A stretch of 64,000 bases of DNA from an uncultured Candidatus Binatia bacterium (GTDB taxonomy: Bacteria; Desulfobacterota; Binatia; UBA9968; JAJDTQ01): the NCBI GenBank assembly GCA_965213675.1, contig OZ243916.1:192001-256000 (forward strand), in the 5' to 3' direction. The notes under the pieces are model-generated. The model had not been told where the DNA came from. It did no database searches and saw only the letters and a program-made list of their open reading frames with translations. Position numbers and translations under genes: made by a program. This document shows, piece by piece, positions 10,648 through 30,757 of the stretch. Position 1 is the stretch's first letter. Each line of letters starts with the position of its first letter.

Positions 10648-11577
10648 TTACAACGGCACCGCCTCGCCGCCCTCGGGCACCCTGTCCTTGTCGAGGTGCT
10701 TGAGCGCTTGGTAGACGAAGTCGTGGCCGAAGACTTCGGTCCAGCCTTGTTGCAGGCGCCCGACCACGGGGCCGGGTTTGCCGTCGCCGATGGGGTTGCC
10801 GTTGATGCGCGTCAGCGGCAGCACGCAGCGCGACGTGGTGGTCATGAAGGCTTCGTCGGCGTTCATGATGTCGTACAACTGGAAGTGGGTTTCCTCCACG
10901 GGAATGTTCAGGTGCCGGGCAACCTCCAGCACCGCGCCCCGCGTGACGCCTGACAGAATGGTCTGCACGGGCGCGGTGACCAGCGCGCCGGCGCGCACGA
11001 TCCAGAAATTGGCCGCGGTGAGTTCCGTGACGTTGCCGTCCAGGCTCAACAGCAGGGCATAGGCCTCGGGGTCCACCAACTGGGCCTGCTGCTCTGCCAG
11101 CCACAGGTGCATCCGGCTGGTGCTCTTGATCTTGGGGTCCCACACCTGGGTGGGGATGGCGCGGATGTGCGTGGTGATGACGTGGCCGCCGTAGATGTAG
11201 TGGTGGGCGAACTTGTTGAAGGCGATGGGCTCGCACAGGATCACCACCGTGGCCCGGCCGGCGGCGTCCGGGCCGCGGGACACGTAGTGCCCCACGAAAT
11301 AGTCCTGGTCGGGTCCCAGCAACTCGCGGTTCTGCCGCACCAGCTCCAGCGTGGTTTCGTGCATTTCGCCGACGGCCATGCCGGGGTCCAGCCGCACCGC
11401 CTTCATGGAGCGATACAATCGCGCCAGGTGCCGGTCCAGGTGGAATATCTCACCCTGGAAGGTGCGCGTCCGTTCGAACACGCCCAAGCCGGAAAGAAAA
11501 CCGCGATCAAAGATGGAGATGCTCGCCCGACTCTCGGGGACGAACTCGCCGTTGACGTATGCCGTGCGTTCCGACAT
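10648..11577 (-). CDS. Aminotransferase class IV (branched-chain/D-amino acid type, PLP)
   Basis: AYVNGEFV, SIFDRGF, HLARL, catalytic-region KIKSTSR, ILSGVTR, ADEAFMTTT, IGDGKPGP. Confidence 0.9.
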   Translation of the reverse strand: MSERTAYVNGEFVPESRASISIFDRGFLSGLGVFERTRTFQGEIFHLDRHLARLYRSMKAVRLDPGMAVGEMHETTLELVRQNRELLGPDQDYFVGHYVSRGPDAAGRATVVILCEPIAFNKFAHHYIYGGHVITTHIRAIPTQVWDPKIKSTSRMHLWLAEQQAQLVDPEAYALLLSLDGNVTELTAANFWIVRAGALVTAPVQTILSGVTRGAVLEVARHLNIPVEETHFQLYDIMNADEAFMTTTSRCVLPLTRINGNPIGDGKPGPVVGRLQQGWTEVFGHDFVYQALKHLDKDRVPEGGEAVPL

Positions 11578-15116: not shown

Positions 15117-18100
15117 CTACTGTGACAACTCCCGGAAGTAGCGTTCGATCTGTTCCCTGAATTGTTCGGGCACGCCCTCCTTGAGCGATTCCAGGACCTC
15201 CTCGCGGAAGCGGTCGGGCCGGTAGTCGTCCTTGCCGGGCAGCTTGAACTTTTCCGTATCCAGTCCGGTGAGGTTGTCGTCGATGTCGTGCTCGGGGAAC
15301 TGGGGCGCGCCGGTCGGAGGCAGGAACTCGCCCGAGGGCAGGAACCGGCCCCGGCGGAAGACGTTCACCAGCGGGACGCGGCCGAAGCGGCCACGCTGCG
15401 CCATCCGCTGCATCGCCTGCTGCATCTGCTGACTCGACTGGGACAGGCGGCTGATGGCCTCCAGCTCGGGCGGAATGGCTTCCCCTGGGCGCAGCGAGCC
15501 CAATTCGTGTTGCGCCTCGCCCATGAACTCCCGCGCTTCGGCGATGCCGTTGACGATCTTCGGGTCGAGGGAAGGGAAGAGCTGGAACAGGTGCCGGAGG
15601 CGGGCGACGAGGTCGCGGGTGCGGCGCTCCAGTACGTCCTCGCGCGTGGCCAGCGAGCGCGTGGCCTCCTTCTGTTCGGGCGTCAGCTCGGGACCGGGGA
15701 GGGCGGCGATGGCCTCGTAGGCGCGCGTCAATTCGGTCAGGATGGCCAAGGCGGCGTTCTGCGCGGTGTCCAGTTCGCCCATTCCCGCCAGCTCTCCGAT
15801 TGCCGGTTCAAGCCGCTTGGACAGCGTGTCGAAGTCGCGGTTCTTCAGCATGTCGCGCAGTCCTGTCAGGAGCCCCCGGACGGCTTCCTGGCGCTCCCGT
15901 TCCGCCGGCGTGCGTTGGCTGTCGCTTTCCAGGTCGGGGGCGGCCAGCAGGTGCTCCAGCACCGCCAAGTCGGTTTGCGCTGCAGCCGCAAGTTCCCGTG
16001 TGGCCTGCTCGCGGAGATCCTCCAACTTCCCGGTGGCCTCCTTGTGGGTGCGTTCCGTGTCCAGGAGAATCTGCTGCTGTTCCTGCAGGATCTCCATGAG
16101 CTCGTTGCCGGACTGATTCATGGCCCCCTGCATGCGCGACATCATTTGGCCTTGGGCCTGTTGCTGTCCGCTGCGCAGCATGGCCGCCAACTGCGCCATC
16201 TGGTTGAACATCTCCCGCGCCATCTGCAACGCGCCCTCGATGTCGCCTTCCTGGAGCTTCTGGCGGATCTGCTCCATCATGGAGCGCATGTCCGAGAAGG
16301 GCATGTTGCGCATGGACGACGGGTTGACGAACTCGTTGGGCATCTGCCGCGCGAACTGCATGAGCGAAGCCTGAAGCTCCTGGAGCTGCTGCGCCATTCG
16401 GGACAGCTCCTGGAGTACTTCGTCGAGCTCCTTGTTGCCGCTCCGCAGCTTCTCCAGCGACTCCAGGAATCTCTCCTGGTTCTTGGCCATGTCGCGGGCG
16501 GTGGCGGCCATGTCCTGGCTGGTCATCCGGCGGCTCACGTCCTCGCTCAGCATGGAGAGCCGTTCCAACTCCGTGGCCATGGCGTCGTGGGCATGTTCGC
16601 GTTCTTCCGGCGACGCTGCCGCGCGCATCCGCTCCAGCAGGTCCTCCCGCGCATGTTGGAGGTTGCGCTTCAGGGTCTCCAGGTCGGACCATGTGGCGAA
16701 GTCGCTGATGCGGTCCTCACGCGTGCGCTGCAAGGTGTCGTCCACGCGCTGCATCATCCGGTCGAGTCCCCCGGCCAGCCGCTCAATCGGTGGGTCGGCC
16801 GCCTGCACGTCACCGTCCGCCTGGCCCGGCGGCGCCTCCAGGTGGTCGCCCAGGAGGTCCACCATCTTGTCCGAGATGTCGCGGATCATCTCCGCGACCT
16901 GGCGATGCTCGGCCTTGAGGTTCTTGAGGCGCAGGCTCAGCGGGCGCGACTTGCCCAGTTTCGGGCCCGAAATGGTGTCGTTGTCCTGAACCTCGAGGTG
17001 ATAGACCACGACGTCGCCTTCCTCCAGGCGCATGCCGTCGAGATCCCAGATGAAGGTCTCCCGGAGCTCCCGCGCCAGATCGGCGCGCCACACGGGAATG
17101 CGCTCCTCGCGCTCGCCGATGGTGGCCACGAGCGTGATCTCCTGGAGGCCGTAGTCGTCGCTGGCGCGGTACTCCAGGGCGATGCGTTCGTCGCCGTTCA
17201 CCTCCAGGTCTTCCGCGGGCTTCAGCAGTTCCACCACCGGAAAACCGTCGGGCACGGCGTGCATGGCGTAGGGAATCGGAAGGTTCTCGAAGCCGAAGGC
17301 GTCTTCGATCCGGATGCGGTATGGCTGCGAGCGGAACAGCACGAGGCTCCCCTGGACCACGTCGCCGGTGACCTTGAGCGGCACCTCCCGGCCGTCGTCC
17401 AGGGCCAGCACGGCTCCGGACACATCCTTGTTGGCGGTGGCCGAGAAGTTCAAGGTGGAGCCCTTGATGCCGCGCACGTTGCCGCCGGTGAAGGTCTGGT
17501 CCGGCAGGCCGGTGTAGTGGGGTGGGTAGAGGGTGACCCTGAGGCCGGTCACGGCCGGACGGTCCACCGCGGTGATCCGGTACCAGGGCGAGGCGAAGGG
17601 CCCGGTTGCCACGCGATAGTCCAGGTCCTCGTTCACCTCCGGCAGCGCCACCGCGTAGCGGTTTCCCGCGCCGGCATCGCCGCCGGGTTTCATGGCTACG
17701 GTCCGGGCCGCTTCGTCGTCGCCGCCGTGCGCGGAGGGCGGCCGCCTGAATGCGAGATGGACCGCGTCCGGCTGCGCGCCGGATGTGACGGCCTCCACCG
17801 AGACCGCGGCGCCGCGGATGACGCGGGCGTCGCCGGTCACGACCTCGATGAATATCTCCGCGGGAGGCAAGTGCTCCAGCGGATGCGCCACCAGCGCCAG
17901 CGTGCGTGCGGGGAACCCCGGATGCCACAGGGCCAGCGCGAGGACCGGGGCCGCGGCCAGGGCCAGGATACGCGCCTTGGCCCGGAGCGGCCGGACGTCC
18001 ACCAGTTCAGAGGGTTGCATGTCGCCGATCTGCGTACGGGTCTGACGGATGAGCGCGAGGATCATCGGGGTCGAGACCCCGGCGGCAGGGTCCGGGCCCT

Positions 18101-18440
18101 TGATCTGCGGGTAGAGTTGCAGGGAGTTGATCAGGTTGTTGCGCAGTTCCGGGCGTTGCCGCTCGATGGCGCGCGCCGCCCACGCCAGGCCGCGCGGGCG
18201 CAGGAACGAGTAAAGGGTGAATACCGCCAGCCCCAGCAGGATCAGTATGGAGCCGACGCTGAAGACCAGGGGCGCGTAGAGCAGCCGCTCCTTCACCATG
18301 TCGACGCCAATGCCCAGCGCACCCAGCACCGCCAGCGCGGTGCCCGCGAGGCAAAGTGCTTCCAGCCCTTCGACGTTTCTCAGCCGGGTCACGAACTTCC
18401 TCAGGAATTCGTCGATGGGACGGTATTCTTCTTCGTGCAA
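15117..18440 (-). CDS. DUF4175-family large membrane/coiled-coil protein (start uncertain, TTG 18440 proposed)
   Basis: N-terminal TMs, LINSLQL, PPHYTG, ASDDYGL, DNDTISGPK, Gln/Met-rich coiled coil, C-terminal IERYFREL. Confidence 0.8.
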   Translation of the reverse strand: MHEEEYRPIDEFLRKFVTRLRNVEGLEALCLAGTALAVLGALGIGVDMVKERLLYAPLVFSVGSILILLGLAVFTLYSFLRPRGLAWAARAIERQRPELRNNLINSLQLYPQIKGPDPAAGVSTPMILALIRQTRTQIGDMQPSELVDVRPLRAKARILALAAAPVLALALWHPGFPARTLALVAHPLEHLPPAEIFIEVVTGDARVIRGAAVSVEAVTSGAQPDAVHLAFRRPPSAHGGDDEAARTVAMKPGGDAGAGNRYAVALPEVNEDLDYRVATGPFASPWYRITAVDRPAVTGLRVTLYPPHYTGLPDQTFTGGNVRGIKGSTLNFSATANKDVSGAVLALDDGREVPLKVTGDVVQGSLVLFRSQPYRIRIEDAFGFENLPIPYAMHAVPDGFPVVELLKPAEDLEVNGDERIALEYRASDDYGLQEITLVATIGEREERIPVWRADLARELRETFIWDLDGMRLEEGDVVVYHLEVQDNDTISGPKLGKSRPLSLRLKNLKAEHRQVAEMIRDISDKMVDLLGDHLEAPPGQADGDVQAADPPIERLAGGLDRMMQRVDDTLQRTREDRISDFATWSDLETLKRNLQHAREDLLERMRAAASPEEREHAHDAMATELERLSMLSEDVSRRMTSQDMAATARDMAKNQERFLESLEKLRSGNKELDEVLQELSRMAQQLQELQASLMQFARQMPNEFVNPSSMRNMPFSDMRSMMEQIRQKLQEGDIEGALQMAREMFNQMAQLAAMLRSGQQQAQGQMMSRMQGAMNQSGNELMEILQEQQQILLDTERTHKEATGKLEDLREQATRELAAAAQTDLAVLEHLLAAPDLESDSQRTPAERERQEAVRGLLTGLRDMLKNRDFDTLSKRLEPAIGELAGMGELDTAQNAALAILTELTRAYEAIAALPGPELTPEQKEATRSLATREDVLERRTRDLVARLRHLFQLFPSLDPKIVNGIAEAREFMGEAQHELGSLRPGEAIPPELEAISRLSQSSQQMQQAMQRMAQRGRFGRVPLVNVFRRGRFLPSGEFLPPTGAPQFPEHDIDDNLTGLDTEKFKLPGKDDYRPDRFREEVLESLKEGVPEQFREQIERYFRELSQ

Positions 18441-18767
18441 GGGAGATTCCTTCCCGGCGCCAGAGCGCGGTCGGCCTTGAAGGGCGGATTCCGTGCGTTC
18501 GGCACGAGTCCAAAGTATGCGATTCATTCTAGAGTGTTTTCTCCGTTTGACAAGCGCTCTCGACCGTGGGTGTTGGCGCCCTTCGGCGGCCATGCTTTGT
18601 CGCGGCCACGTCAAACGGCAACGTCAAACGGTAAGTTCAAAGGGTTGGCGTCAGGGAGACGGGGGCGTGGACGCTCCTGGACTTGGGCTCCTTAAACTGG
18701 AAAGCGGTCGGGGCTTGTGTTACGCCTGTGACTTGGCTTTCCGAAACGCGTTGCGCGGGAATCTCTT

Positions 18768-18885: not shown

Positions 18886-20472
18886 ATGGACCGCGATCCC
18901 TTTGAGCTGCCTCTCCTGTGTCACGAAGGACATGAAGATCACGACCACGACGACACGCCGCTGCCCGATGAGGACCACCCCATGTGGCGGTCCGAGCGCA
19001 TCTCGCTGACTTCGGTCGGCATCGACATCGGCTCGTCCACCTCCCATCTCATCTTTTCCAGGCTGCTGCTGCGCCGCCAGGGCATCTCTTTGTCGAGCCG
19101 CTTCGTGGTGGTGAGCCGCGACATCGTCTACGAGTCGCCGATCCTGCTGACCCCGTACGTGGACAAGCTCACCATCGACACGGCGAAACTCAACGATTTC
19201 ATCCACGACGCCTACGCGCGCGCGGGTCTCACCCGGCAGGATGTCGATACCGGCGCGCTCATCGTCACCGGCGAGGCGGCCAAGAAGAAGAACGCCGAGG
19301 CCATCGCGGCCTTGTTTTCCGAGGAGGCGGGCAAGTTCGTGTGCGCCACCGCCGGGCACAACCTCGAAGCCATTCTGGCGGCCTTTGGCTCCGGGGCCGT
19401 GGAGCTTTCGAACCAGAGCGAGGGCCACGCGTGCATGAACGTGGACATCGGCGGCGGCACCAGCAAGATCGCCATTACCCGCGGGGGGCAGGTAGTGGAC
19501 ACCGCGGCGCTGGAGGTGGGCGCGCGGCTGGTGGCGTTGGACGGTGAGCAGCGAATCAACCGCCTGGAGGACGCGGGCGCGCGTATCGGTGCGGCCAACG
19601 GCCTGTCGCTGGCGCTGGGCCAGATCCTGGCCGAGGCTGACAAGGAGCGCATGGCCGAGACCCTCAGCGGCTGTCTCCTGGAAGTGCTGGGCCGCGGCCC
19701 GCTGTCGCCGCTGACCCGGGAGATGATGCTCACGCCGGCGCTGTCCTACGAGGGTCCGATCCATGCCCTCCAGTTCTCGGGCGGGGTGTCGGAGTATGTC
19801 TACGGCTACGAGACCGCGGACAAAGGGGACCTGGGCAACCATGTGGGACGGAAGATCCGCACCGGCGCGGTGGAGCTGTCGACCCGGGAGTCGTGGCAGT
19901 TCAAGGAGCCCGAGGTGCGCATCCGCGCCACGGTTATCGGCGCGTCACAGTACACGGTGCAGGTGAGTGGCAACACGATCTTCCTGTCCGACGACTCGGT
20001 CCTGCCGCTGCGGAATCTACAGGTGATCACCCCGCATTTCCGCCAGACCGAACCGCTGACGGCCGAGGACGTCAGCAGCGCCATCGAGCGCGCGCTCCAG
20101 CGCTTCGACATGACCGACGGCGACCGCGGCGCGGCCTTGGCGCTCAACTGGGACCTGGGTCCCTCCTATCCCCTCCTCAAGACCCTGGCCACCGGGTTGG
20201 TGGACGGCATGCGTGAGCATCTCCACCGAGGCAATCACCTCGTGCTGGTTTTCGATGCCGACATCGCCAAGCTCGTGGGCAACATCATCGACAAGGAGGT
20301 CCGTCCCGGAACCGGCGTCATTTCCATCGACGGCATCGACCTCAAGGACTTCGACTTCATTGACATCGGCGAGGAGTTGGCTGACGCCAAGGCCGTGCCG
20401 GTGGTAATCAAGTCGCTCATCTTCCGCCACGAGGAGTGGGGCCGCGGGCGTTTGCTGACCGGCGACTGTTGA
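18886..20472 (+). CDS. EutA-like reactivase (actin/ASKHA fold)
   Basis: SVGIDIGSSTSHLIFSRL, GALIVTGEAAKKKNA, FVCATAGHNLE, NVDIGGGT, IRATVIGA, DFIDIG, VPVVIKSLIF. Confidence 0.88.
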   Translation: MDRDPFELPLLCHEGHEDHDHDDTPLPDEDHPMWRSERISLTSVGIDIGSSTSHLIFSRLLLRRQGISLSSRFVVVSRDIVYESPILLTPYVDKLTIDTAKLNDFIHDAYARAGLTRQDVDTGALIVTGEAAKKKNAEAIAALFSEEAGKFVCATAGHNLEAILAAFGSGAVELSNQSEGHACMNVDIGGGTSKIAITRGGQVVDTAALEVGARLVALDGEQRINRLEDAGARIGAANGLSLALGQILAEADKERMAETLSGCLLEVLGRGPLSPLTREMMLTPALSYEGPIHALQFSGGVSEYVYGYETADKGDLGNHVGRKIRTGAVELSTRESWQFKEPEVRIRATVIGASQYTVQVSGNTIFLSDDSVLPLRNLQVITPHFRQTEPLTAEDVSSAIERALQRFDMTDGDRGAALALNWDLGPSYPLLKTLATGLVDGMREHLHRGNHLVLVFDADIAKLVGNIIDKEVRPGTGVISIDGIDLKDFDFIDIGEELADAKAVPVVIKSLIFRHEEWGRGRLLTGDC

Positions 20473-20474
20473 CG

Positions 20475-20921
20475 TTACCGCCGCAACCTCCGCGACAGAA
20501 CGGCTTTCTCGCCTGCCCAGAGAAGGAGCGATGCGGCGCCGAGGAGTAGAGAGCCGAACCACAAACGCTCGGCGACGACAGGCTGGTTCCACCAAGCGGG
20601 GGGCGCCAACTTGACTGTGGCCAACGTGAGGAGAAATGCACCCGGCGCTGCATAAGGCATCCGCAACGGCGATACCAGTAACTTGTCGCAATCGAATGAC
20701 CCACGAATGACAAACAAGACGATTGCCATTATCAGAGTGCTTGGGAGCAGGACATAAAACGGCATGGGTTTACCGATCAAGTCAAAGCAGGCCATGGACA
20801 CGCACCAGACGGCGACACCGAGAGCAGTGTAGAAGCAGCATCTCAACAATCTCAAGTGTCTCTCCAGACCGTCCTGATCTCCGTTCCGTACTCGAAACGC
20901 GCCCAAGAATTCAATACTCAT
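20475..20921 (-). CDS. Small 4-TM membrane protein, candidate immunity protein
   Basis: Four hydrophobic segments, lower GC, directly downstream of the Gly/Ala-rich peptide gene; start could be 20945. Confidence 0.55.
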   Translation of the reverse strand: MSIEFLGAFRVRNGDQDGLERHLRLLRCCFYTALGVAVWCVSMACFDLIGKPMPFYVLLPSTLIMAIVLFVIRGSFDCDKLLVSPLRMPYAAPGAFLLTLATVKLAPPAWWNQPVVAERLWFGSLLLGAASLLLWAGEKAVLSRRLRR

Positions 20922-20975
20922 GTTTTGCGCCTTCGAAGGACACATGGTGGAACACCGGTGTCCCGGGTGGAAAGG

Positions 20976-21006
20976 GTGGGATGCGACTGTTGCAGCCGCA
21001 TCCCAC
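20976..21006 (-). terminator. 14-bp stem-loop after the peptide gene
   Basis: Minus-strand RNA GUGGGAUGCGGCUG-CAA-CAGUCGCAUCCCAC (one G-U pair) followed by CCUUU. Confidence 0.65.
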
Positions 21007-21025
21007 AGGCACCGGACTGGCCAGA

Positions 21026-21397
21026 CTAACGACCTTCCAATATCGCGGGCAGCGTTGTCAAAGAGAACGTGTTCATCATCTCCCTGAATTCATCCGGATC
21101 GATCGAATCGGCGGCTTGGCCGAGTTCTTGCGGCGCCGCAGCGCACGCGTCGCTTGTCAGGGCACTGTGGACCGCTCCAGAGGCCAAGCCTCCAGCAGCT
21201 ACCGCGCCAACAATAACTGTCGCCGAACCAGCGGTTCCGGCCGTAGTCCCTCCGAAGATGGCGGTTCCGGCAGCGGTAGCGCCTTGTTCGACGGCTGCAC
21301 CTATGGCACCCGCCACGGCGCCTGCCTTGGCTCCTTTCTCAATGTCTTCCTTGCATTGCTCCACATTCGGCCGGTCTTGCTCGAAAAGAGCCACCAT
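21026..21397 (-). CDS. Gly/Ala-rich bacteriocin/microcin-like peptide (5' leader apparently disrupted)
   Basis: C...GAKAGAVAGAIGAAVEQGATAAGTAIFGGTTAGTAGSATVIVGAVAAGGLASGAV...C; strong AAGGAGG SD at 21466-21472. Confidence 0.6.
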   Translation of the reverse strand: MVALFEQDRPNVEQCKEDIEKGAKAGAVAGAIGAAVEQGATAAGTAIFGGTTAGTAGSATVIVGAVAAGGLASGAVHSALTSDACAAAPQELGQAADSIDPDEFREMMNTFSLTTLPAILEGR

Positions 21398-21479
21398 TTG
21401 CTCGCCGAATTCCTGACGGCAACGCCGCTATCGTCGCAAGTTTCGGTGAGTCACATTACGTGCGTCCTCCTTGTGGGGT

Positions 21480-21602
21480 TTCTCTCGTCATTGTCCAATA
21501 GCCGGCTACCATTATTGTAATCAAGCATATAGACGAAAACTTTAACGAAAATTCTCTAGGAGCGCCGGTTTTTTGCGAGAAGCAAGAATTTTTGTGTGAA
21601 TT
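21480..21602 (-). promoter_or_regulatory. AT-rich promoter-like region upstream of the peptide gene
   Basis: Sharp AT enrichment, TACAAT hexamer and a TTTTCGT direct repeat on the minus strand. Confidence 0.4.
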
Positions 21603-22604
21603 TTACGCCGACAACTTCTTCGCGTTCTCTTTGCGCCGGAGGGAGATGGGGTGCTCGGGGTGAAGGGGTCTGAAGTGGGCCATGGAGAGCCAGACTCTCA
21701 GGAGGTGGCGCTCGGAGTCGTCGCCGGTGAACCGGGTGCGTGTGTGCAGCACCACGTGGTTGTTGAAATACTCGATGTCTCCGGGGCGGAGTTCCAGTGA
21801 GACCGCTACCCGGTCCGCGACCTTGTTGAAGACATCCAGAGCCTTCTTCTGCGCCACGGTCAGTTCGGCCACGCCCGCGAGTCTTTGCGCGCGCTTGATG
21901 TGCACGGGATAGGCGCAGGCGTTGAAAACGCCATCGCGGAGGCTCACGAACGGCAGGCGGGTCCAGTGGTGGCCGTAGTCCGGATGAGGCTCCTGCAGCG
22001 CCACCTGGAAGGGGCGGATGAGGACGCGCAGTTCATCGGGATGGTCGGCTGCCATGACGTTGTAGACGGTGGCGGCGCTGGCGAACCGCCGGGTGCCGCC
22101 GTGGCGCGCGGGGCGCAGGCACAGGAATCCGATCACGTCCTCGAGATCGGCGTGGAAGGGAAGGGTCCCGGCGGTGCGGAAGCCCAAACCGTGCCGATTG
22201 TCGTCCTTCCCGGCACGCACGTGGGCGAGCCGGACCCCCTCGGGTTGTTCCATGGGCTCACCCAGACGCCGGCTCAACGCCATGAACACGGTAGCCGCCT
22301 CCTGTTCCGTCCATCTCCCAACCGGTAGCCCGCGCAGGATCCGGAGCCCCACGCCTGACCGTAGCTCACGCTCGGTCCGTCCCATCTGCCAGGCGAGGAA
22401 GGAACCTTCCGGCGCCAGGGAGTGCTCGCCTTGAAGGCCGGCGCGCGCGGTGGCCGACAATTCCGCCAGTTCGTTGGGGGTGAGATCGTGCAGCCAACCG
22501 GGCGACCCGGCGAGGTCGGATGGCGTCCAGGCCGCGGAGTCGGACGTCCGCGGGAACTCTTCGGCAAGTGGATCGGTGGAACCGGCGCTGATTTCCGTAT
22601 GCAT
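21603..22604 (-). CDS. TauD/TfdA (clavaminate synthase-like) Fe(II)/2-oxoglutarate dioxygenase
   Basis: FHAD (HxD), GFLCLR, LRPGDIEYFNNHVVLHTR, RHLLRVWL; ATG abuts the HlyD stop (TAGATG). Confidence 0.9.
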   Translation of the reverse strand: MHTEISAGSTDPLAEEFPRTSDSAAWTPSDLAGSPGWLHDLTPNELAELSATARAGLQGEHSLAPEGSFLAWQMGRTERELRSGVGLRILRGLPVGRWTEQEAATVFMALSRRLGEPMEQPEGVRLAHVRAGKDDNRHGLGFRTAGTLPFHADLEDVIGFLCLRPARHGGTRRFASAATVYNVMAADHPDELRVLIRPFQVALQEPHPDYGHHWTRLPFVSLRDGVFNACAYPVHIKRAQRLAGVAELTVAQKKALDVFNKVADRVAVSLELRPGDIEYFNNHVVLHTRTRFTGDDSERHLLRVWLSMAHFRPLHPEHPISLRRKENAKKLSA

Positions 22605-23948
22605 CTACTTCTCCCGGAATGCGTCCTGCCGGTAGCCCCGGAGAGGCTGAAGGACGTATTCGATGACGCGTTGTTTGCCCAGGATGACCGCAGCCTCGGA
22701 CGACATGCCGGGCAACAGGCTGATCTTCCGGCCCTCCACTTCCATGTAGTTTTGATCGAGGTCGATGAGGGCTTTGAACGCGGGACCCCCCTGAACACTT
22801 CCGGACTGGGCGGCCGGTGCTCCTGACGCGCCCGCCGCCGCGCTCGCGAACTCCGGGCCGCCGCCCAGCGCCCCCGCGTTCACGGCGTCCTTGCCGATGT
22901 GGCGCACCGTGCCTTCGATGGCGCCGTAGCGGCGAAAATCGAAGGTGGTCACCTTGAGCGTGACCCGTTGGCCGGGCTTGACGAAGCCGATGTCGGCGTT
23001 GGCGATGAAAGCCTCCACCTGGATCCCGGCGTTGCGGGGCACAATCACCATGAGGCGGGCGCCCGGTTCCACCATGCCGTCTTCGGTATGCACCGCGAGG
23101 TCCTGAACGACTCCATCCACCGGCGCCCGCAGGGTGTGGCGCGTGCGAAGTTCACGGGACTGACGAATATCCTCCCGCAGGACGAGGATCCTTTCGCGCA
23201 CGGCCGCCAGGCTGGCGCGGCGTTCACGGTAGAACTCCGAGATGGTCCGTTGCTTCTGCGCCTCGATTCCGGCCAACGCCGCTCTGGCCTCGTCCAGTTC
23301 CCTCTGGCGCAACGCCGTGTTGCCCTCCAACTCCACCAGACGTTCCTGCTCGTCGATGAAGGCGAGCCGCGAGCCATGGTTGTCGCGGTACAGGGTCTCG
23401 CGCATGGCGGTTCGTTCGCGCAGGATGGGCAGCAGCCGGCGATGCTTGGCCAGCGCCGCCTCCAGGGTCCGGATCTGTGCCCGCCGCTCGGCCATCCGGT
23501 TGTCGAGCTCTCGCAGGTGCGCGCGGTGGGACGCGACCTGATCCGCCAACAGTGCTTCGTTGATGGAGATGATTTCCGGCGGCGCGCCGGCGGGCGGGTG
23601 GAATTCACGACCTTCGCGCCAGGCCACGAGCGCCTCCAGGCGCGCGGCTTCCACCGACCGGGTGTGCAGTTCGGCCGTACGCTTGGAGATCTCGGCGTCC
23701 ACGAGGGTGGTGTCGAACTCGATGAGGACATCGTCGCGCCCGACCGGACTGCCTTCCTCCACGGCGATGCGCCGGATCTTTCCGGCCTCGAAGGACCGGA
23801 TCACCTTCACCTGCCCGGTGGGAACGATCCGTCCCGGCGCCACCGCCGCGAGTTCGACCTCCGCCACTGACGCCCATGCGAGTGTCCCCACGAGAAAGAG
23901 ACACAACGCTACGAGCAGGAGTATGTCATTGTGATGCGCCTTGCCCAT
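22605..23948 (-). CDS. HlyD-family type I secretion periplasmic adaptor
   Basis: N-terminal TM, APGRIVPTGQVKVIRSFEAG, coiled coil, LRAPVDGVVQ, DIGFVKPGQ, FDFRRYG, PGMS, RVIEYVLQP. Confidence 0.93.
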   Translation of the reverse strand: MGKAHHNDILLLVALCLFLVGTLAWASVAEVELAAVAPGRIVPTGQVKVIRSFEAGKIRRIAVEEGSPVGRDDVLIEFDTTLVDAEISKRTAELHTRSVEAARLEALVAWREGREFHPPAGAPPEIISINEALLADQVASHRAHLRELDNRMAERRAQIRTLEAALAKHRRLLPILRERTAMRETLYRDNHGSRLAFIDEQERLVELEGNTALRQRELDEARAALAGIEAQKQRTISEFYRERRASLAAVRERILVLREDIRQSRELRTRHTLRAPVDGVVQDLAVHTEDGMVEPGARLMVIVPRNAGIQVEAFIANADIGFVKPGQRVTLKVTTFDFRRYGAIEGTVRHIGKDAVNAGALGGGPEFASAAAGASGAPAAQSGSVQGGPAFKALIDLDQNYMEVEGRKISLLPGMSSEAAVILGKQRVIEYVLQPLRGYRQDAFREK

Positions 23949-24077
23949 CGACGGGTTCTCTCCTTCCGGCTGGCATGGCCCGAGTTCGCCTGCCTCACAG
24001 GTACAGATCGACCCCATGGAATCGAACTTTAGCGCTCCGGAAAGATTAATCGTCGAGGAACGAAGATCGGGTGCTAG

Positions 24078-24612
24078 GGAAGGTCTGAACAACGGCGGTA
24101 TTGGCCGGCAAGCGGACGGTCCGATCAGTTAGTGGCATGGGGGGACCGCGGATAAGGGTTCCGGGGAGTCGTTTCATGACCAAACCGCAGGTATTTCGCC
24201 CTCCCTTGCCGCAGCAGGCGGACCGGTCCTCGCCTCAGTTGTCTCGTCCGGCAATGCTCCCGAAAGCCGCAGCCCCACAAAGCGCCGCACCGACTCCACC
24301 TCGTATAAAAGGTCTTCCATCCCAGGGTCGCTCAGGTTGTAGAACAACTCCACACAGTGCACCCGCAGCATCACCCCCAACGGGTACGGCCGCCGTCCAC
24401 GTCCCGCCTTCGGCTAAAATGCCTCTATCCGCTTCTCCAGACGCCTCCACGGTATCAGCCCCTCCATCTTCTCCAAAAACTCCTCCCGCCGCGTCCGCCG
24501 CTTCTTCCCGTCATGTTCCATCTCCGCGAAGCTCGCCTGTCTCATCTTTCCCCTCCATGCCCTGCCGTTTTCCCCATTATGACATGTGAAAGGTCTCTTG
24601 TTCAGATCTTCC
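24078..24612 (-). mobile_element. Internally deleted IS5-family element (535 bp)
   Basis: TIRs GGAAGGTCTGAACAA / TTGTTCAGATCTTCC, CTAG on both sides; transposase 5' part MRQASFAEMEHDGKKRRTRREEFL...[13 protein letters not shown]...PDETT (24545-24237) with internal stop. Confidence 0.9.
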
Positions 24613-25178: not shown

Positions 25179-27134
25179 CTAACGCTTTCCGCCGAATCCC
25201 GCCGCCACGTCGGACCGTTCGAGTACACCACCCATGGCCTCGTGCGTTGCACCCAGGAATGTCCCGGTGACCTCGCCGTCGTCGCCACCAGTCTGCCAGA
25301 AGGAGTTGCCTTGCACCTCGATCGTGTATGCAAGATCGCCGTCTCCCCATAGCGTGCCCTGGCCCATCGTTCCCGGCGGTGCGTTCGTCCCCCACGATTC
25401 CAGCCCGTCAAAATCCAGGTTCCCGTCCAAAGTCGAGAGCGAAATGGCGAGACTGGCGGACCCGGAGACGGTTTCGCCGTTCGGCGTAATTCCGAGGAGC
25501 GCACCACTCCAGGTCACGTTGCCCGACAACTCCTGGTTGTCGGGCAACTCCATCCACGGCGTGGGTCCGGAGGCCCAAGGCTGGGCCCGGCCATTCCTCG
25601 ACGCAACGCCGTAGGCAGCCTCGCCGCCCGGAAACTCAAAGCTTCCGCGTATGTGAAATGACGTATCCGTCCACTGTCCCAGGCTTTGTACAGATAAGTC
25701 CTCCGGCTCGGTACCCGGCTGCAGTCTGTCGTACGCCGCGAATAATGCGTCGCTGTCGATCGTGGGAAGCGTTGAGATGGTAAGCAGGGTGGTGCCGCGC
25801 ATGATCGAATCCGGGAACCGGGCGCCGTCGTTGTGAGCCAGGAACCCCAAGACGTGCACCAATTCGTGTGCCACGATCGCGAATATGTCTTCCTCGGAGT
25901 AAACCCTGATGGTCGGATCAGTCACTGGCATGTTCAACAGCACTTCTTCGTGTTGTCCCGTAGCGGGGTTGAGCACCCACGCGGCGTTTTGAAGGCGTTC
26001 TAGGTCGAACCAGACATGGGCCGCCCGCATTTCCTTGTCCTCCCACCGGCTTTGTGCTGCATCCCATTCTGCAATTGGGTCATTTTCGGCGACCGCGGCA
26101 GAACCGGGCCGAAAGTTTCGGTTCGCAAGATTCCAATCGTCGCTCGATGCCGCGAAATCGATATAGATCTCTCCATCGGGGATGTTGCCGATGGCCGTCA
26201 GCGCCGGCGCAGGAATACTGCTGAATGCAATGCGCTGCTCGTAGGGAAGGGCGCCATTGATCAATTGAACGGCGCGAATCGCGTAATGGGCGAACTCATC
26301 GCTCGTTCCTGCCGCTAGGCGGACGGTGGGCGGATCGACGAAGGTCGGGAGCCCCGTAGTGGTCCGGGTGAACGTGTAGCCGCTACCCGCCTCCGATGTG
26401 CTGACGCCTATGTGCTGACCAAGAAACTCGATCACGCGCGCAGCATCGGTTCCGTCCTGTACCCAGCCGGATGACGTCGCGATCGCGCCGTATGAGTGGC
26501 CGGCGGTGAGCAATTCTGCCGGTGGCGCCACGTCTGCCCCCACGTGCAGCGTTTCCTGATAGTCGATCGTGGGCGCCTGCGCGGCGTGGACCGTCTCCGA
26601 TTGCGGAAGGTCGGGAAACTCCTCCGGCGGTATGAGCATGTAGGTCGGCGTGCCGCCGGTCCTGGAAAAGGTCACCATTCCATCTGTTGAGACTGTCATC
26701 ACGCATGCCTGCCCATCCGACGGGCATGACAGGATGACATTGTCGTGCTCCTCGGATGTGCCGGGTTGCACGGTGATCGATCCTGTTGGCAGCCCGTGTA
26801 CGTAAGGCGTCGCCAAGGATTCGCTTGCAACCATGACCGAGGGCATGCCGCCGGTGCGTTCGTACTCGGCGGTGCCGTCTGCGGCCACGATCAGCACGCA
26901 TGCCAGCCCGCCCACCGGGCACGAAACCACTACATTGCCATGTTCGTCGCTGGAGCCCGGCGCGACGCTGATCTCGCCTGCCGCGAGTCCGTGGCCCGAG
27001 GGGAGCGGCAAAGAAACACCTGCTGACGGTTCAACCGGCCCCGGTCCAACAACTGCCGATCCCCCCCTATCTCCGCAGGCGGCGAGAAGCAGCAGTAGAC
27101 ATGCGGAAAGTGCAACCGGTCGGCAAACGTGCAT
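25179..27134 (-). CDS. Surface lipoprotein with metzincin protease motif and C-terminal TbpB-like barrel
   Basis: Lipobox LAAC; two ~50-aa repeats with SCPxxGxACV; HELVHVLGFLAH plus DSIM Met-turn; C-terminus GTFLGATHEAMGGVL...AGFGGKR; GGAGG SD. Confidence 0.8.
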   Translation of the reverse strand: MHVCRPVALSACLLLLLAACGDRGGSAVVGPGPVEPSAGVSLPLPSGHGLAAGEISVAPGSSDEHGNVVVSCPVGGLACVLIVAADGTAEYERTGGMPSVMVASESLATPYVHGLPTGSITVQPGTSEEHDNVILSCPSDGQACVMTVSTDGMVTFSRTGGTPTYMLIPPEEFPDLPQSETVHAAQAPTIDYQETLHVGADVAPPAELLTAGHSYGAIATSSGWVQDGTDAARVIEFLGQHIGVSTSEAGSGYTFTRTTTGLPTFVDPPTVRLAAGTSDEFAHYAIRAVQLINGALPYEQRIAFSSIPAPALTAIGNIPDGEIYIDFAASSDDWNLANRNFRPGSAAVAENDPIAEWDAAQSRWEDKEMRAAHVWFDLERLQNAAWVLNPATGQHEEVLLNMPVTDPTIRVYSEEDIFAIVAHELVHVLGFLAHNDGARFPDSIMRGTTLLTISTLPTIDSDALFAAYDRLQPGTEPEDLSVQSLGQWTDTSFHIRGSFEFPGGEAAYGVASRNGRAQPWASGPTPWMELPDNQELSGNVTWSGALLGITPNGETVSGSASLAISLSTLDGNLDFDGLESWGTNAPPGTMGQGTLWGDGDLAYTIEVQGNSFWQTGGDDGEVTGTFLGATHEAMGGVLERSDVAAGFGGKR

Positions 27135-27358
27135 GGTGAATCCTCCGGGGCAGCGGTCAACCGGCCCCGACCGATCCCAGCGTCGGGCCATAACCGCAAC
27201 GGCATGACAGCGTAATCGTCACAGCATGATAGATCAACTTTGTACAAAATTTGGTGATGTATGAGAGTTTGTGTCAGGGGGAGAGGAGGGGGTACTCCAG
27301 TGGGTTAACCAAGATCTACATAGGAAGGAGCACCCCCGATGCCACAGAGGGCAATGAT

Positions 27359-27778
27359 TGGTCTTCCCCGGGATTGGTGGACACCTGATAAGAGGGGATG
27401 ATGGCCTCGGAGGTGAGAACCATGACACGGAAGAGACGGAAGTTTTCGAAGGAGTTCAAGCAGGAAACGGTCAAGCTGGTCAAGGAAGGACCGCGCTCGG
27501 TGGGAGAGGTCGCGCGTGATCTGGACTTGACGGAATCGGCGGTTCGCAAGTGGGTACGGCAGTTCGACGTGGACGCTGGTGTGCGCGAGGGGGTAAGCAC
27601 GAGGGAACTCGATGAGGTACGCCGGCTGCGGACGGAGAACCGGCAGCTACGGATGGAGCGCGACATCCTGAAAGAAGCGACGGCCTTCTTCGCCAAGGAA
27701 TCGATGTGAGGTTCGCGTTCATCGAGGCGGAGAAGGCCAGATTTCCCGTGACCATGATGTGCCGGCTGCTTGAGGTCT
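27359..27778 (+). mobile_element. IS3-family remnant: IRL, orfA (27422-27709) and start of orfB, truncated by IS5
   Basis: TGGTCTTCCCCGGGATTGGTGGACACC end; orfA RRKFSKEFKQETVKLV...ILKEATAFFAKES; orfB from GTG 27706 RFAFIEAEKARFPVTMMCRLLEVS; the usual A6G frameshift site reads AAAGAAG. Confidence 0.9.
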
Positions 27779-29185: not shown

Positions 29186-30757
29186 CTACTTCTTGCCCGG
29201 CTCGAAGCCCCCTTGCTCGTGGTAGACGACCTTCCTGTCTTCTTCGAAGGCGCGCACCGTGGGAATGGTTCCGCGCAGCCCCAGTTCCTTCCAGCGGTTC
29301 GCCACCTGATCGTACATCTCCCGGCGCAGGGTGGTGCGCTTGGAGAAGACCGGCAGGTAGCGGTGTTCCTTGCACGCGTTGATGAGCGCCTTGGAGCCGT
29401 AGGGGCGCTCCTCCGGCGGGTTCTGGGTGGGGTCCAGCCACGTGCTCCAGGTGTTGCGCAGCACGTCGATGTCCTCGATGGGATTGGAACGGCTGCTCAT
29501 GGCCCAGATCACCTGGTCCATGTCCGTGGGATCGATGTCCTCGTCCACGGCGATGATCCACTTGGTGTAGTACGCGCCGCCGGGCACCTGCGCCGCCAGC
29601 GCCAGGCACTGGGCCGCGTGGCCGGCGTAGCGCTGTTCCAGGCTGATCACCGTCATGCCGAAGCCGCCGGCGCCGGCCGGATGGGCGTAGACGCCCTGGA
29701 CGCCCGGGATGCCCAGCTTGTCGAGATCGTCCCAGATGCGCGCCGAGCGAATGACGGCGAAAAAGCCGCTCTGTTCGCAGGACGGGTAGTCCGCCATGAT
29801 GGCGTTGGTGAGCACAGGGTGGGTGCGATGGTGCACGCGGGTCACCTCCACCAGCGGGCAGCCCGCCTCCGGCCTGCCGTAGTAGCCGGGAAACTCGCCG
29901 AAGGGCCCCTCGGTCTTCACCGAGTTGGGCCGGATCACGCCCTCGATCACCAGCTCGGCATTGGCCGGCAGCAAGAGGTCGCTGGTCTCCGCCCGCACCA
30001 CCGGGATGGCCTCGCCCTTGATGCCGCCGGCGAATTCGTACTCGGACACGTTCTTGGGAAAGGTCTGGGAACCCACCAGCATGAACAGCGGGTCGATGCC
30101 CCAGGCCGCGGCCACGGGCACGGCCTCGCCCTTTTCCCAGGAGCGGGTGATGTGCAGCCGGGCGTCCTTGCCCGGCGACAGGTAGAGCCCGGCCTCCCGC
30201 TTGCCCTGGAGCATCATCCGGTAGGTGCCGATGTTGAGATAGCCGGAGTCGGGGTCTCGGGTGAACACCGCGTCCGCGGTGCCCGCGTAGCGTCCGCCGT
30301 CCAGCGGCCAGTGGCGCGGGATGGGAAGCTGTTCCAGGTCGATGTCGTCGCCCGCCAGGGTGTTCTCGAACACCGGCGCCTGGGCGGCCGCGACCTCGCG
30401 CGGCGGAATCCGGTCCTTCATCTTCTCCTTGAGCCGGCGGATCAACTCCAGCGTGGGCGTCTCCGGCGGCTCCTCGACGGTGAGGGCGATGCGCTTGGAA
30501 CTCGGCCCCAGGATGTTCCACAGCATGCGCGCGCCGATGGGGCTGTCTTCGAACCCCTTGGGGTTTTCGAACAGGATGGCGGGCGAAGGCTTCTGCTTGG
30601 CCACCAGGTACGTGATGGCGCTCATTTCCTCGTCCCGGTCCACCGGCTTGTCGATCTGGATCAACTCGTTGATCCCTTCCGCGCGGTCGAGCCATTCACG
30701 GATGTCCTGAATCGGACGGCCGGTCCCTCCGGACTCGCCCTTGTTCGCTTCGGCCAT
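29186..30757 (-). CDS. UbiD-family prFMN-dependent (de)carboxylase
   Basis: PAILFEN, DGGRY, NIGTYR, AELVIEG, EGPFGEFPGYYG, IIAVDEDIDP. Confidence 0.93.
   Translation of the reverse strand: MAEANKGESGGTGRPIQDIREWLDRAEGINELIQIDKPVDRDEEMSAITYLVAKQKPSPAILFENPKGFEDSPIGARMLWNILGPSSKRIALTVEEPPETPTLELIRRLKEKMKDRIPPREVAAAQAPVFENTLAGDDIDLEQLPIPRHWPLDGGRYAGTADAVFTRDPDSGYLNIGTYRMMLQGKREAGLYLSPGKDARLHITRSWEKGEAVPVAAAWGIDPLFMLVGSQTFPKNVSEYEFAGGIKGEAIPVVRAETSDLLLPANAELVIEGVIRPNSVKTEGPFGEFPGYYGRPEAGCPLVEVTRVHHRTHPVLTNAIMADYPSCEQSGFFAVIRSARIWDDLDKLGIPGVQGVYAHPAGAGGFGMTVISLEQRYAGHAAQCLALAAQVPGGAYYTKWIIAVDEDIDPTDMDQVIWAMSSRSNPIEDIDVLRNTWSTWLDPTQNPPEERPYGSKALINACKEHRYLPVFSKRTTLRREMYDQVANRWKELGLRGTIPTVRAFEEDRKVVYHEQGGFEPGKK

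Follow-up and report, generated by a model that had tools for sequence, protein, structure and literature searches.

Enzymes of the MNIO family are a fast-growing source of peptide chemistry, and most of their known products are copper-binding peptides exported by the Sec pathway. Here we analyze a 64,000-nt stretch of the genome of an uncultured Candidatus Binatia bacterium (contig OZ243916.1; G000:C1:192001-256000 in our numbering, in which G000 is the genome under study; hereafter "the window"), which carries on its minus strand, between positions 20475 and 24092, four open reading frames (ORFs) of 495 aa (with a HlyD match), 333 aa (TauD family), 123 aa (Gly/Ala-rich) and 156 aa (hydrophobic). 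In our judgment this gene set is likely to be the export and tailoring half of a split MNIO system for a ribosomally synthesized peptide with post-translational modifications (RiPP), accompanied by a broken precursor gene and a likely immunity gene. A first-pass annotation had regarded it as a candidate RiPP/bacteriocin system; the assignment to a ribosomal-peptide export and tailoring system stands, but not the notion of a self-contained class II microcin system.

The closest described systems are those of the captophorins (bufferins, oxazolin/HvfA, fontiphorin and bulbicupramide), in which, according to the available text of the reports, an MNIO and a DUF2063-type partner act on a Cys-rich precursor and Cys is converted to 5-thiooxazole, yielding copper-binding products (PMC12668002, PMC12538549, PMC12452194); enzymes of the BufB/HvfB kind modify in this way Cys residues that precede a small residue (PMC12668002, PMC12538549). 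Like these, the system described here has an MNIO whose nearest models are BufB and HvfB, a partner gene directly after it with a predicted fold resembling NGO1945/TglI, and repeated Cys residues followed by a small residue. Unlike them, its MNIO falls below both equivalog cut-offs, its partner has no DUF2063 match in Pfam, and its precursors, which on inspection have no Sec signal peptide, show a strictly alternating C-x pattern with up to 19 Cys instead of EGKCG-type spacing. Further differences are the addition of a type I ATP-binding cassette (ABC) transporter, HlyD, the TauD-family enzyme and a short-chain dehydrogenase/reductase (SDR) to the cluster, and the existence of variable C-terminal precursor domains with class-specific neighbors, encoded by dispersed genes under one promoter-like box. 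A second point of comparison is TglHI of the 3-thiaglutamate pathway, with other MNIO systems that have PME-type 2 partners (PMC12452194, available text). Here the likeness lies in a partner without the DUF2063 signature, whose model is nearest to 8hi7_A, and in precursors without a signal peptide, whereas the MNIO is far closer to BufB/HvfB and the precursor type and the accessory genes differ.

Export of class II microcins (for example microcin V) and of siderophore-microcins (for example E492) depends on an ABC transporter with a HlyD-type protein, and their immunity genes are adjacent. These two type I-exported microcins are treated in the available text of PMC11630599. The present system resembles microcins in HlyD-type export, in a Gly-rich hydrophobic domain bracketed by Cys and in a small membrane protein encoded alongside; with siderophore-microcins it would share the joining of a metal-binding moiety to a membrane-active peptide. 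It differs from microcins in having neither a double-Gly leader nor a bona fide C39 peptidase and in the size of its precursors (130-270 aa), and from siderophore-microcins in that the MNIO would generate the putative metal-binding part out of the protein's own Cys tract, in place of an attached siderophore. Polymorphic ionophoric toxins of contact-dependent growth inhibition (CDI), whose CdiA-CT domains contain a glycine-zipper motif and whose cognate CdiI proteins are hydrophobic according to the available text of PMC11630599, likewise combine a constant N-terminal delivery part with variable C-terminal domains (glycine zippers among them) and adjacent, cognate, highly variable membrane partners; however, they are delivered by a two-partner-secreted filament, whereas for the present system a small modified protein secreted by the type I route is proposed, and no sequence relationship was found.

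The words TauD, HlyD, type I secretion, ABC transporter and dioxygenase are absent from the MNIO survey (PMC12452194), and the available text of its section on other precursors contains no alternating-Cys family. Literature searches for MNIO with HlyD, TauD, peptidase-containing ABC transporters (PCAT), type I secretion, immunity or polymorphic toxins gave nothing relevant, with the proviso that the supplementary datasets of PMC12668002 and PMC12452194 may list loci of this kind, and a search of the literature on Binatia, RiPPs and sponges gave nothing on this system. The first-pass annotation did not recognize the combination as characterized, and we too found no published description of it; the peptide-modification system appears to be unreported.

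Genomic context of the HlyD-TauD pair

The HlyD and TauD-family genes of the window are intact and make up one predicted operon, preceded by the promoter-like box described below. The window's HlyD is the only adaptor in the genome above the TIGR01843 cut-off (one of eight matches), with weak secondary matches to TIGR01000 and TIGR03794. The closest solved structures to the TauD-family protein are 7n7v, a "predicted hydroxylase" (for which a literature search found no accompanying paper), and FrbJ; the stretches 'FHADLED' and 'VLHTRTRF' match the same residues in both, which aligns the H-x-D motif and the distal His, residues that we take to be the iron ligands of TauD (H-x-D/E ... H). Its best score against an NCBIfam equivalog is only 26.2 bits (cut-off 268.3), and its weak NCBIfam matches are to carnitine and clavaminate enzymes. 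In the protein collection the TauD clade comprises ~80 clusters at >=50% identity, after which identity falls to ~35%. The clade (58-80% identity) was detected in 26 of 27 congeners, the exception being G014, which has only a 35% paralogue, and in none of 300 sampled genomes of the phylum outside the genus (E-value <=1e-30), save for ~35% paralogues. HlyD is found in 26 and the MNIO in 25 of the 27 congeners; G014, although 98% complete, lacks the TauD clade, HlyD, MNIO, precursors and the four-transmembrane (4-TM) family described below alike.

The co-occurrence of the two genes recurs among homologs: TauD directly follows HlyD in all 20 loci fetched (19 with a full-length HlyD, one with a 32-aa HlyD remnant). 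In 14 of these the pair is adjacent to EutA, as it is in the window, where EutA (18886-20472, plus strand) is convergent with the four-gene set, and no adjacent ABC gene was found by tblastn and Pfam searches over 8 kb upstream; the window also has no ABC transporter, as had been stated. The remaining loci encode an MbnB/TglH/ChrH-family MNIO, a ~270-aa partner, a type I ABC transporter, HlyD, TauD and an SDR, and in nine loci examined the HlyD-TauD pair follows the ABC gene inside this RiPP cluster, between ABC and SDR. The only MNIO of the genome under study (PF05114, 253 bits) is encoded outside the window at G000:C1:145474-146358, 68 kb from HlyD-TauD; it is followed by genes for a 286-aa partner, a 639-aa HlyB-type ABC transporter and an SDR, with no HlyD-TauD there, and DUF6282 borders this site on one flank, deacetylase and SLT genes on the other. 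The assignment of the TauD-like protein to a ribosomal-peptide tailoring system is supported by its place with HlyD in a RiPP cluster, but the core modifying enzyme would be the distant MNIO with its partner.

At the same MNIO site in 12 congeners, all eight 'split' genomes have, like the genome under study, the order MNIO-partner-ABC-SDR, while all four 'complete' ones have HlyD-TauD between ABC and SDR. In 10 genomes, this one included, >50 kb of the same contig separate the MNIO from the nearest HlyD; in at least 10 others the distance is no more than ~5 kb. The maximum-likelihood phylogeny of HlyD and TauD, which includes every locus with both proteins full-length (n=24), separates the 15 EutA-site copies from the nine MNIO-site copies by one branch with 100/100 support, therefore a single relocation or duplication suffices. 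From these comparisons the pair seems to have moved beside EutA in this genome and at least nine congeners, leaving MNIO-partner-ABC-SDR behind, and its split from the ABC gene looks like a single old event common to all 15 EutA-site copies. The first-pass annotation had suspected that the locus may be truncated, given an IS5 insertion sequence (IS) ~130 nt upstream of hlyD and no ABC transporter in the window. A transposase fragment is indeed present (PF05598, 24174-24380), but since the separation is common to all EutA-site copies, the ABC gene would not have been lost through it.

The precursor family and its promoter-like box

In relatives, ORFs upstream of HlyD encode precursors composed of a ~32-aa leader ending in ...LDLEIxG, a tract of strictly alternating CG/CS/CA, an acidic linker and a C-terminal domain. 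We collected 45 precursor ORFs or fragments from 43 loci: the 43 full-length ones contain 10-19 Cys and two relics from the genome under study contain five; 10 of the 45 have no C-terminal domain and the others carry differing ones. To these 10 belong the short precursors (69-81 aa, leader and Cys tract only) that lie directly upstream of HlyD in the nearest relatives of the window. The leaders of relatives end in ...LDLEIHG followed by Cys, with no double-Gly motif, and a GG or GA cleavage motif was looked for in the precursors and not found. The N-termini are hydrophilic and acidic, without a hydrophobic core, which on inspection indicates that there is no Sec signal peptide. None of the long precursors of relatives that were scanned had a Pfam match, and five of them compared with NCBIfam gave a single match far below the threshold (15.6 bits vs 175). 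A profile of the leader and the start of the tract (A4) detected 1-5 copies in 26 of the 27 congeners (none in G014), five places in the genome under study (none within the window) and, in a collection of 1.84 billion proteins, no more than 25 cluster representatives; the precursor family is very rare. The genome under study has one intact precursor, of 164 aa (G000:C1:3906075-3906569), followed by a gene for a 123-aa TM protein, with relics nearby.

Two observations concern the relics. A stretch of another contig, C17:72813-74870, repeats the relic-precursor region C1:3909029-3911085 and may be a haplotig or strain variant (the contamination estimate of the assembly is 8%). In addition, a repeated element with an inverted repeat, reading 'MTRINQTPH' in one frame, adjoins the MNIO promoter (L046:12650-12800, upstream of MNIO in G000:C1) and a relic precursor (L053, ~11230-11260); it looks like a small repeat of the repetitive extragenic palindrome (REP) or miniature inverted-repeat transposable element (MITE) type.

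The upstream regions of 42 precursors and of the window relic share a promoter-like box: the pattern TAA[AG]GT-N13-17-nGA[TC] occurs in 34 of these 43 regions, whereas shuffled sequences averaged 0.23 and gave no more than 2. It lies ~62-88 nt, in most cases ~80 nt, upstream of the start codon and is usually followed by TGTrGGCG. Five of the nine matches to a strict form of the pattern in the genome lie just upstream of genes of the system, namely the MNIO operon, the window's HlyD, the intact precursor and two relic precursors (C1, C17). The HlyD box matches the one before the short precursor in the nearest relatives, while in the box of the window's own precursor gene the first base of the second element (TGATT) deviates from the consensus CGAT. 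On this evidence the box appears to link the dispersed loci independently of synteny; its geometry would recall alternative-sigma promoters, and a dedicated sigma factor or regulator may bind there. A generic scan for sigma-70 promoters and terminators returned nothing above shuffles; the AT-rich, promoter-like gap of the first-pass annotation instead contains a system-specific promoter-like box. Two further strict matches lie before genes for an uncharacterized protein of 358 aa (C1:3404313) and for one of 230 aa whose N-terminus contains a hydrophobic stretch (C1:3864136).

The decayed precursor gene of the window

Homologs of the 123-aa ORF do exist, in the C-terminal halves of relatives' precursors. 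The ORF aligns solely to residues 106-212 of the 212-aa precursor of G007; with the C-terminal half of the precursor it shares 52% identity in G004 and 46% in G007. The hydrophobic Gly/Ala core between two Cys, described earlier, is present, and both Cys are invariant in these homologs; this glycine-zipper domain is probably membrane-active. In G004 a full-length precursor gene and its 4-TM neighbor occupy the same place, convergent with EutA. Upstream of the 123-aa ORF, the promoter-like box survives (17/18 identical to G007, score 31 vs a maximum of 26 in 300 shuffles), as does a block with Shine-Dalgarno (SD) sequence and ATG (28/35 identical to G004, score 25 vs a shuffle maximum of 24). 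However, codon 2 is TGA in the window and CAA in relatives, and the distance from the start to the conserved 'NVEQC' is ~90 nt in the window vs ~300 nt in relatives, with a change of frame. The strong SD that had been credited to the 123-aa peptide (GGAGGA, 21465-21470) in fact precedes an ATG at 21456 followed by this TGA; the start of the 123-aa ORF lies 59 nt further on in another frame, and its internal ATG is preceded only by a weak and distant AGGA. Because of the surviving box and SD-ATG, the TGA at codon 2, the shortened spacing and the C-terminal-only alignment, the 123-aa ORF, which lacks any leader, is best regarded as the truncated C-terminal remnant of a longer precursor whose leader, Cys tract and acidic linker are gone.

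Database searches with the ORF itself gave only a sub-threshold Pfam match to DUF5518 (21.4 bits vs 27) and, as for the 4-TM protein, no match in NCBIfam. Also absent from the window is the short precursor found before HlyD in its nearest relatives; the orthologous box now stands 58 nt from the HlyD start.

C-terminal domain classes and their neighbors

Precursors were grouped by clustering of the last 75 residues, and the neighboring ORFs were clustered as well. The precursors of the Gly/Ala two-Cys class all keep leader and Cys tract (20 of 20, window excluded), and each of them adjoins a gene of the 4-TM family (18 downstream, two upstream; 16 found by automatic pick and four by a separate look). 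The family occurs in 19 of the 27 congeners, and 20 of its 22 matches there lie within ~1.1 kb of a precursor match, the exceptions being one beside an MNIO and one weak match. The class with 'RGxGxMxSP' is followed by a single neighbor cluster (5/5), whose members were Sel1-repeat proteins in all three cases scanned; the one with '..DGDGK' precedes a small TM family of another kind (3/4); and short precursors have no class-specific neighbor. One class with one neighbor is the pattern of toxin-immunity modules, and so are variable C-terminal domains with partners of their own, encoded by dispersed copies of low G+C content at third codon positions (GC3). The 4-TM protein of the window is thus most likely the immunity protein of the Gly/Ala C-terminal domain, kept as an orphan: the "4-TM immunity-like gene" of the first-pass annotation behaves like an immunity gene in its adjacency to precursors of one class. 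In a protein atlas the 4-TM protein was found only in unannotated small-protein clusters, at a recognition below the usual level.

Behind the precursors with 'RGxGxMxSP', whose C-terminal domain is soluble, secreted Sel1-repeat proteins (335-430 aa) were encoded in every case (L083, L085, L106, L053:11796-13007), a putative second toxin-immunity pairing on the same scaffold. The genome under study keeps a Sel1 gene behind a relic leader.

MNIO, partner and exporter

The MNIO has as its nearest NCBIfam models BufB (206.7 bits) and HvfB (187.3 bits), with lower scores for other characterized members (ApyH, 99 bits; ChrH, 55; MbnB, 40). Its partner has no Pfam match, the DUF2063 signature included; in the partner of one relative DUF2063 was seen below threshold (21.3 vs 27.2). 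The predicted model of the partner (pLDDT 72.9) has as its three best fold matches 8hi7, 8hci (TglHI) and 3dee (NGO1945), with E-values of 1e-4 to 2.4e-3, the single best being 8hi7_A (1e-4); judged from this model it would be a type 2 partner as defined in the available text of PMC12452194.

The MNIO-adjacent transporter is the genome's best HlyB-type match (531.8 bits), which makes it the natural counterpart of the window's HlyD, but covers only positions 120-693 of the HlyB model. In relatives, PF03412 (C39) was detected in one of five ABC transporters scanned, just below the cut-off (21.1 bits vs 22), and in the alignment Arg stands at the position of the expected catalytic His. The first-pass annotation had looked to C39-peptidase ABC transporters and double-Gly precursors beside TauD homologs, and no bona fide example of either was found. 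An N-terminal C39-like domain of ~130 aa is visible in some relatives' transporters (L039, L041, L037) and absent from those of this genome and L044, and the exporter architecture therefore appears to vary within one genus.

Features of the window and flanking DNA

The coordinates are given in Table 1. The basic description in the first-pass annotation proved sound: the four co-oriented genes are real minus-strand ORFs, the HlyD stop abuts the oxygenase start (read as TAGATG), a 14-bp hairpin lies between the peptide and 4-TM genes, and the lower GC of the last two genes is seen in a GC3 of 0.60 and 0.67 for the small ORFs, vs 0.82-0.88 for TauD, HlyD and EutA. Two starts were revised. In the 495-aa ORF the match to HlyD homologs begins only at residue ~46-57, and with the SD before it ATG 23948 is most likely the start, not a codon near 24073-24092; the 4-TM protein most likely starts at 20921, which gives 148 aa, the same length as its homologs. 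The proportions of nonsynonymous and synonymous differences (pN/pS) are 0.284/0.642 for the 123-aa ORF (vs G004), 0.249/0.621 for TauD (vs G007) and 0.259/0.618 for the 4-TM copy, and purifying selection appears to have acted on all four ORFs.

Table 1. Features of the proposed split system (window positions unless marked G000:C1)
Feature	Position	Strand	Evidence or remark
HlyD-family type I secretion periplasmic adaptor, 447 aa	22605..23948	-	TIGR01843, 329.7 bits (cut-off 208.65); SD GGAAGGAG just 5' of ATG 23948
TauD/TfdA-family Fe(II)/2-oxoglutarate oxygenase, 333 aa	21603..22604	-	PF02668, 99.3 bits (cut-off 27); start abuts HlyD stop
Promoter-like box TAAAGT-N15-CGATC before HlyD	24006..24031	-	one of 9 genome-wide pattern matches
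Promoter-like box TAAAGT-N15-TGATT, decayed precursor gene	21519..21544	-	17/18 identical to G007 precursor box
Surviving SD (GGAGGA) and ATG of precursor gene, then TGA	21451..21470	-	28/35 identical to G004 precursor start
123-aa ORF, C-terminal Gly/Ala-rich two-Cys domain of precursor	21026..21397	-	aligns to C-terminal halves of relatives' precursors
14-bp hairpin between the two small genes	20976..21006	-	91-nt fold, -41.1 kcal/mol, z = -3.0
148-aa four-TM protein, partner of Gly/Ala C-terminal class	20475..20921	-	family conservation, adjacency to precursors
Transposase fragment, flanking, outside the system	24174..24560	-	PF05598, 35 bits (24174-24380); two short ORFs
Box TAAAGT-N15-CGAT(T/C) and TGTrGGCG	G000:C1:146475-146500, 3906625-3906650, 3909505-3909530; window 24006-24031, 21519-21544		

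About 3.9 kb between GPP34 and the HlyD promoter are absent in the nearest relatives; this DNA comprises an IS3-type orfA fragment, a gene for a 670-aa lipoprotein and the transposase fragment. The predicted lipoprotein (25179-27191, minus strand), located between the IS fragments, has a metalloprotease motif of the HExxHxxGxxH type and at its C-terminus a weak match to Slam-dependent surface lipoproteins (NF041636, E-value 8e-4), and the orfA fragment (27398-27709, plus strand; PF01527, 55 bits) forms the other edge of the extra segment. Elsewhere in the window, a gene for a 1165-aa DUF4175 protein (15117-18614, minus strand) adjoins EutA, and a second, distant UbiD-family gene (59123-60382, minus strand) encodes a protein with 26% identity to that encoded at 29189-30757.

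Alternative explanations

The proposal of a split RiPP system builds on gene identities, synteny, co-occurrence, a shared motif and a truncation, all of which are observed, and several points weigh against it. The congeners are kin, hence the co-occurrence counts are not independent events. The strict pattern TAARGT-N15-CGAYY has nine matches in the genome, as many as the reversed-pattern control, and only the placement of the matches is telling. The MNIO is below the equivalog cut-offs (206.7 < 310 for BufB; 187.3 < 360 for HvfB), and for this reason its reaction may differ from thiooxazole formation. The genome's ABC transporter has no N-terminal recognition or peptidase domain, and in relatives such a domain is sub-threshold. 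As to the small genes, no stop interrupts the 123-aa ORF and its pN/pS resembles that of its neighbors, and it may have been truncated recently or still be made; a candidate leader remnant past the codons ATG, TGA and CTC (a 'GVAV' likeness) was rejected, as the local alignment did not exceed shuffles. The 4-TM family has no match in a collection of gene calls with 5.8 billion proteins, and the status of the gene would rest on the conservation shown in this analysis. The window's 4-TM copy also departs from the family at two of eight nearly invariant positions, E105K and R122W (position 105, inside TM3, is Lys in the window copy and Glu in at least 90% of 23 aligned members; position 122 is Trp vs Arg), changes that fit decay or an altered specificity.

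Of the other readings, the one with which the locus was first met, a self-contained class II microcin-like locus with a double-Gly peptide, HlyD, TauD and immunity protein from which IS5 removed the peptidase-ABC gene, can draw on HlyD being a bacteriocin-type export component (with weak TIGR01000 and TIGR03794 matches), on the small peptide ORF next to the 4-TM gene and on the transposase fragment upstream. We nevertheless regard it as very improbable: none of the relatives' EutA-site loci (14/14) has an adjacent ABC gene in the tblastn and Pfam searches over 8 kb upstream, and a transposase gene was present in only one of the four whose upstream ORFs were scanned with Pfam; the split would be a single old event; the 123-aa ORF has no leader and no GG/GA cleavage motif; the genome's ABC transporter has no C39 domain, and the relatives' cluster includes the MNIO and its partner. 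The same slight probability attaches to the idea that HlyD and TauD are an efflux adaptor for small molecules and a dioxygenase for sulfonates or other metabolites, chance neighbors with no relation to peptides. TauD-family enzymes do act mostly on small molecules, the weak NCBIfam matches are to carnitine and clavaminate enzymes, and FrbJ and 7n7v are small-molecule or unassigned hydroxylases, but the pair sits between ABC and SDR of the MNIO cluster in nine loci, has the promoter box of the precursors in common with them, follows precursor genes that lie directly upstream of HlyD in relatives, and is missing from G014 along with the other components.

Less easily dismissed, yet in our view unlikely, is a 123-aa ORF that still works: translation would begin at the internal ATG, a type I signal at the C-terminus would direct export, and the unmodified product would be a membrane-active toxin against which the 4-TM protein gives active immunity. 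The substrates of classical type I systems have their signals at the C-terminus, the genome's ABC transporter has no N-terminal domain, the promoter box is nearly intact and the ORF is open with pN/pS near its neighbors' values; however, dS is saturated, so that a recent truncation would not yet show, the strong SD serves the dead ATG-TGA start while the internal ATG has a weak and distant AGGA, and all 20 precursors of the class keep leader and Cys tract. Somewhat more credible, although still doubtful, is that the products are metal-binding peptides of the captophorin/bufferin kind and not toxins, with the class-specific neighbors (4-TM, Sel1-repeat and other TM proteins) acting as receptors, anchors or handling factors. 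The models nearest to the MNIO are BufB and HvfB, maturases of copper peptides, the described products of enzymes of this kind bind copper according to the available text of PMC12668002, PMC12538549 and PMC12452194, and the nearest relatives have precursors consisting of leader and Cys tract directly upstream of HlyD. On the other hand, bufferin-type precursors are described in the available text of PMC12452194 as using Sec signal peptides, unlike these, and the variable C-terminal domains come with their own partner families in 1-5 dispersed low-GC3 copies per genome. The metal-binding and toxin readings are compatible, as the Cys tract may bind metal and the C-terminal domain act on membranes.

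Conclusions

With regard to chemistry, the substrate of the TauD-family enzyme, toxicity and immunity, we infer the following scheme for the split RiPP system. The partner would hold the leader while the MNIO oxidizes Cys residues of the tract to thiooxazole-type heterocycles; TauD and SDR would add further oxidation; and the ABC transporter, HlyD and a putative outer-membrane channel would export the product. We speculate, as a possibility that is less likely than not, that the products are chimeric type I-secreted proteins in which a poly(Cys-Gly) module with up to ~19 heterocycles, for metal binding or receptor hijacking, is joined to interchangeable toxin domains that have their own immunity proteins, all co-regulated by one dedicated promoter or sigma factor, with TauD and SDR adding a modification that is so far not known among MNIO products.

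Compared with what the available text of the MNIO survey and the captophorin papers describes, the system adds a dense alternating-Cys substrate, type I export, two extra redox enzymes and precursors that resemble polymorphic toxins and have cognate, putative immunity genes. It is also a RiPP cluster that is split over several loci and still recognizable through a common promoter box; genome mining based on clusters would miss such splits, and the window by itself would pass as an orphan HlyD-TauD pair. The precursor family, rare and from uncultivated bacteria, is a defined target for heterologous expression. If the speculation is true, the chimeric proteins would be the equivalent, in one polypeptide, of siderophore-microcins, as well as a family of polymorphic toxins that uses a RiPP scaffold.

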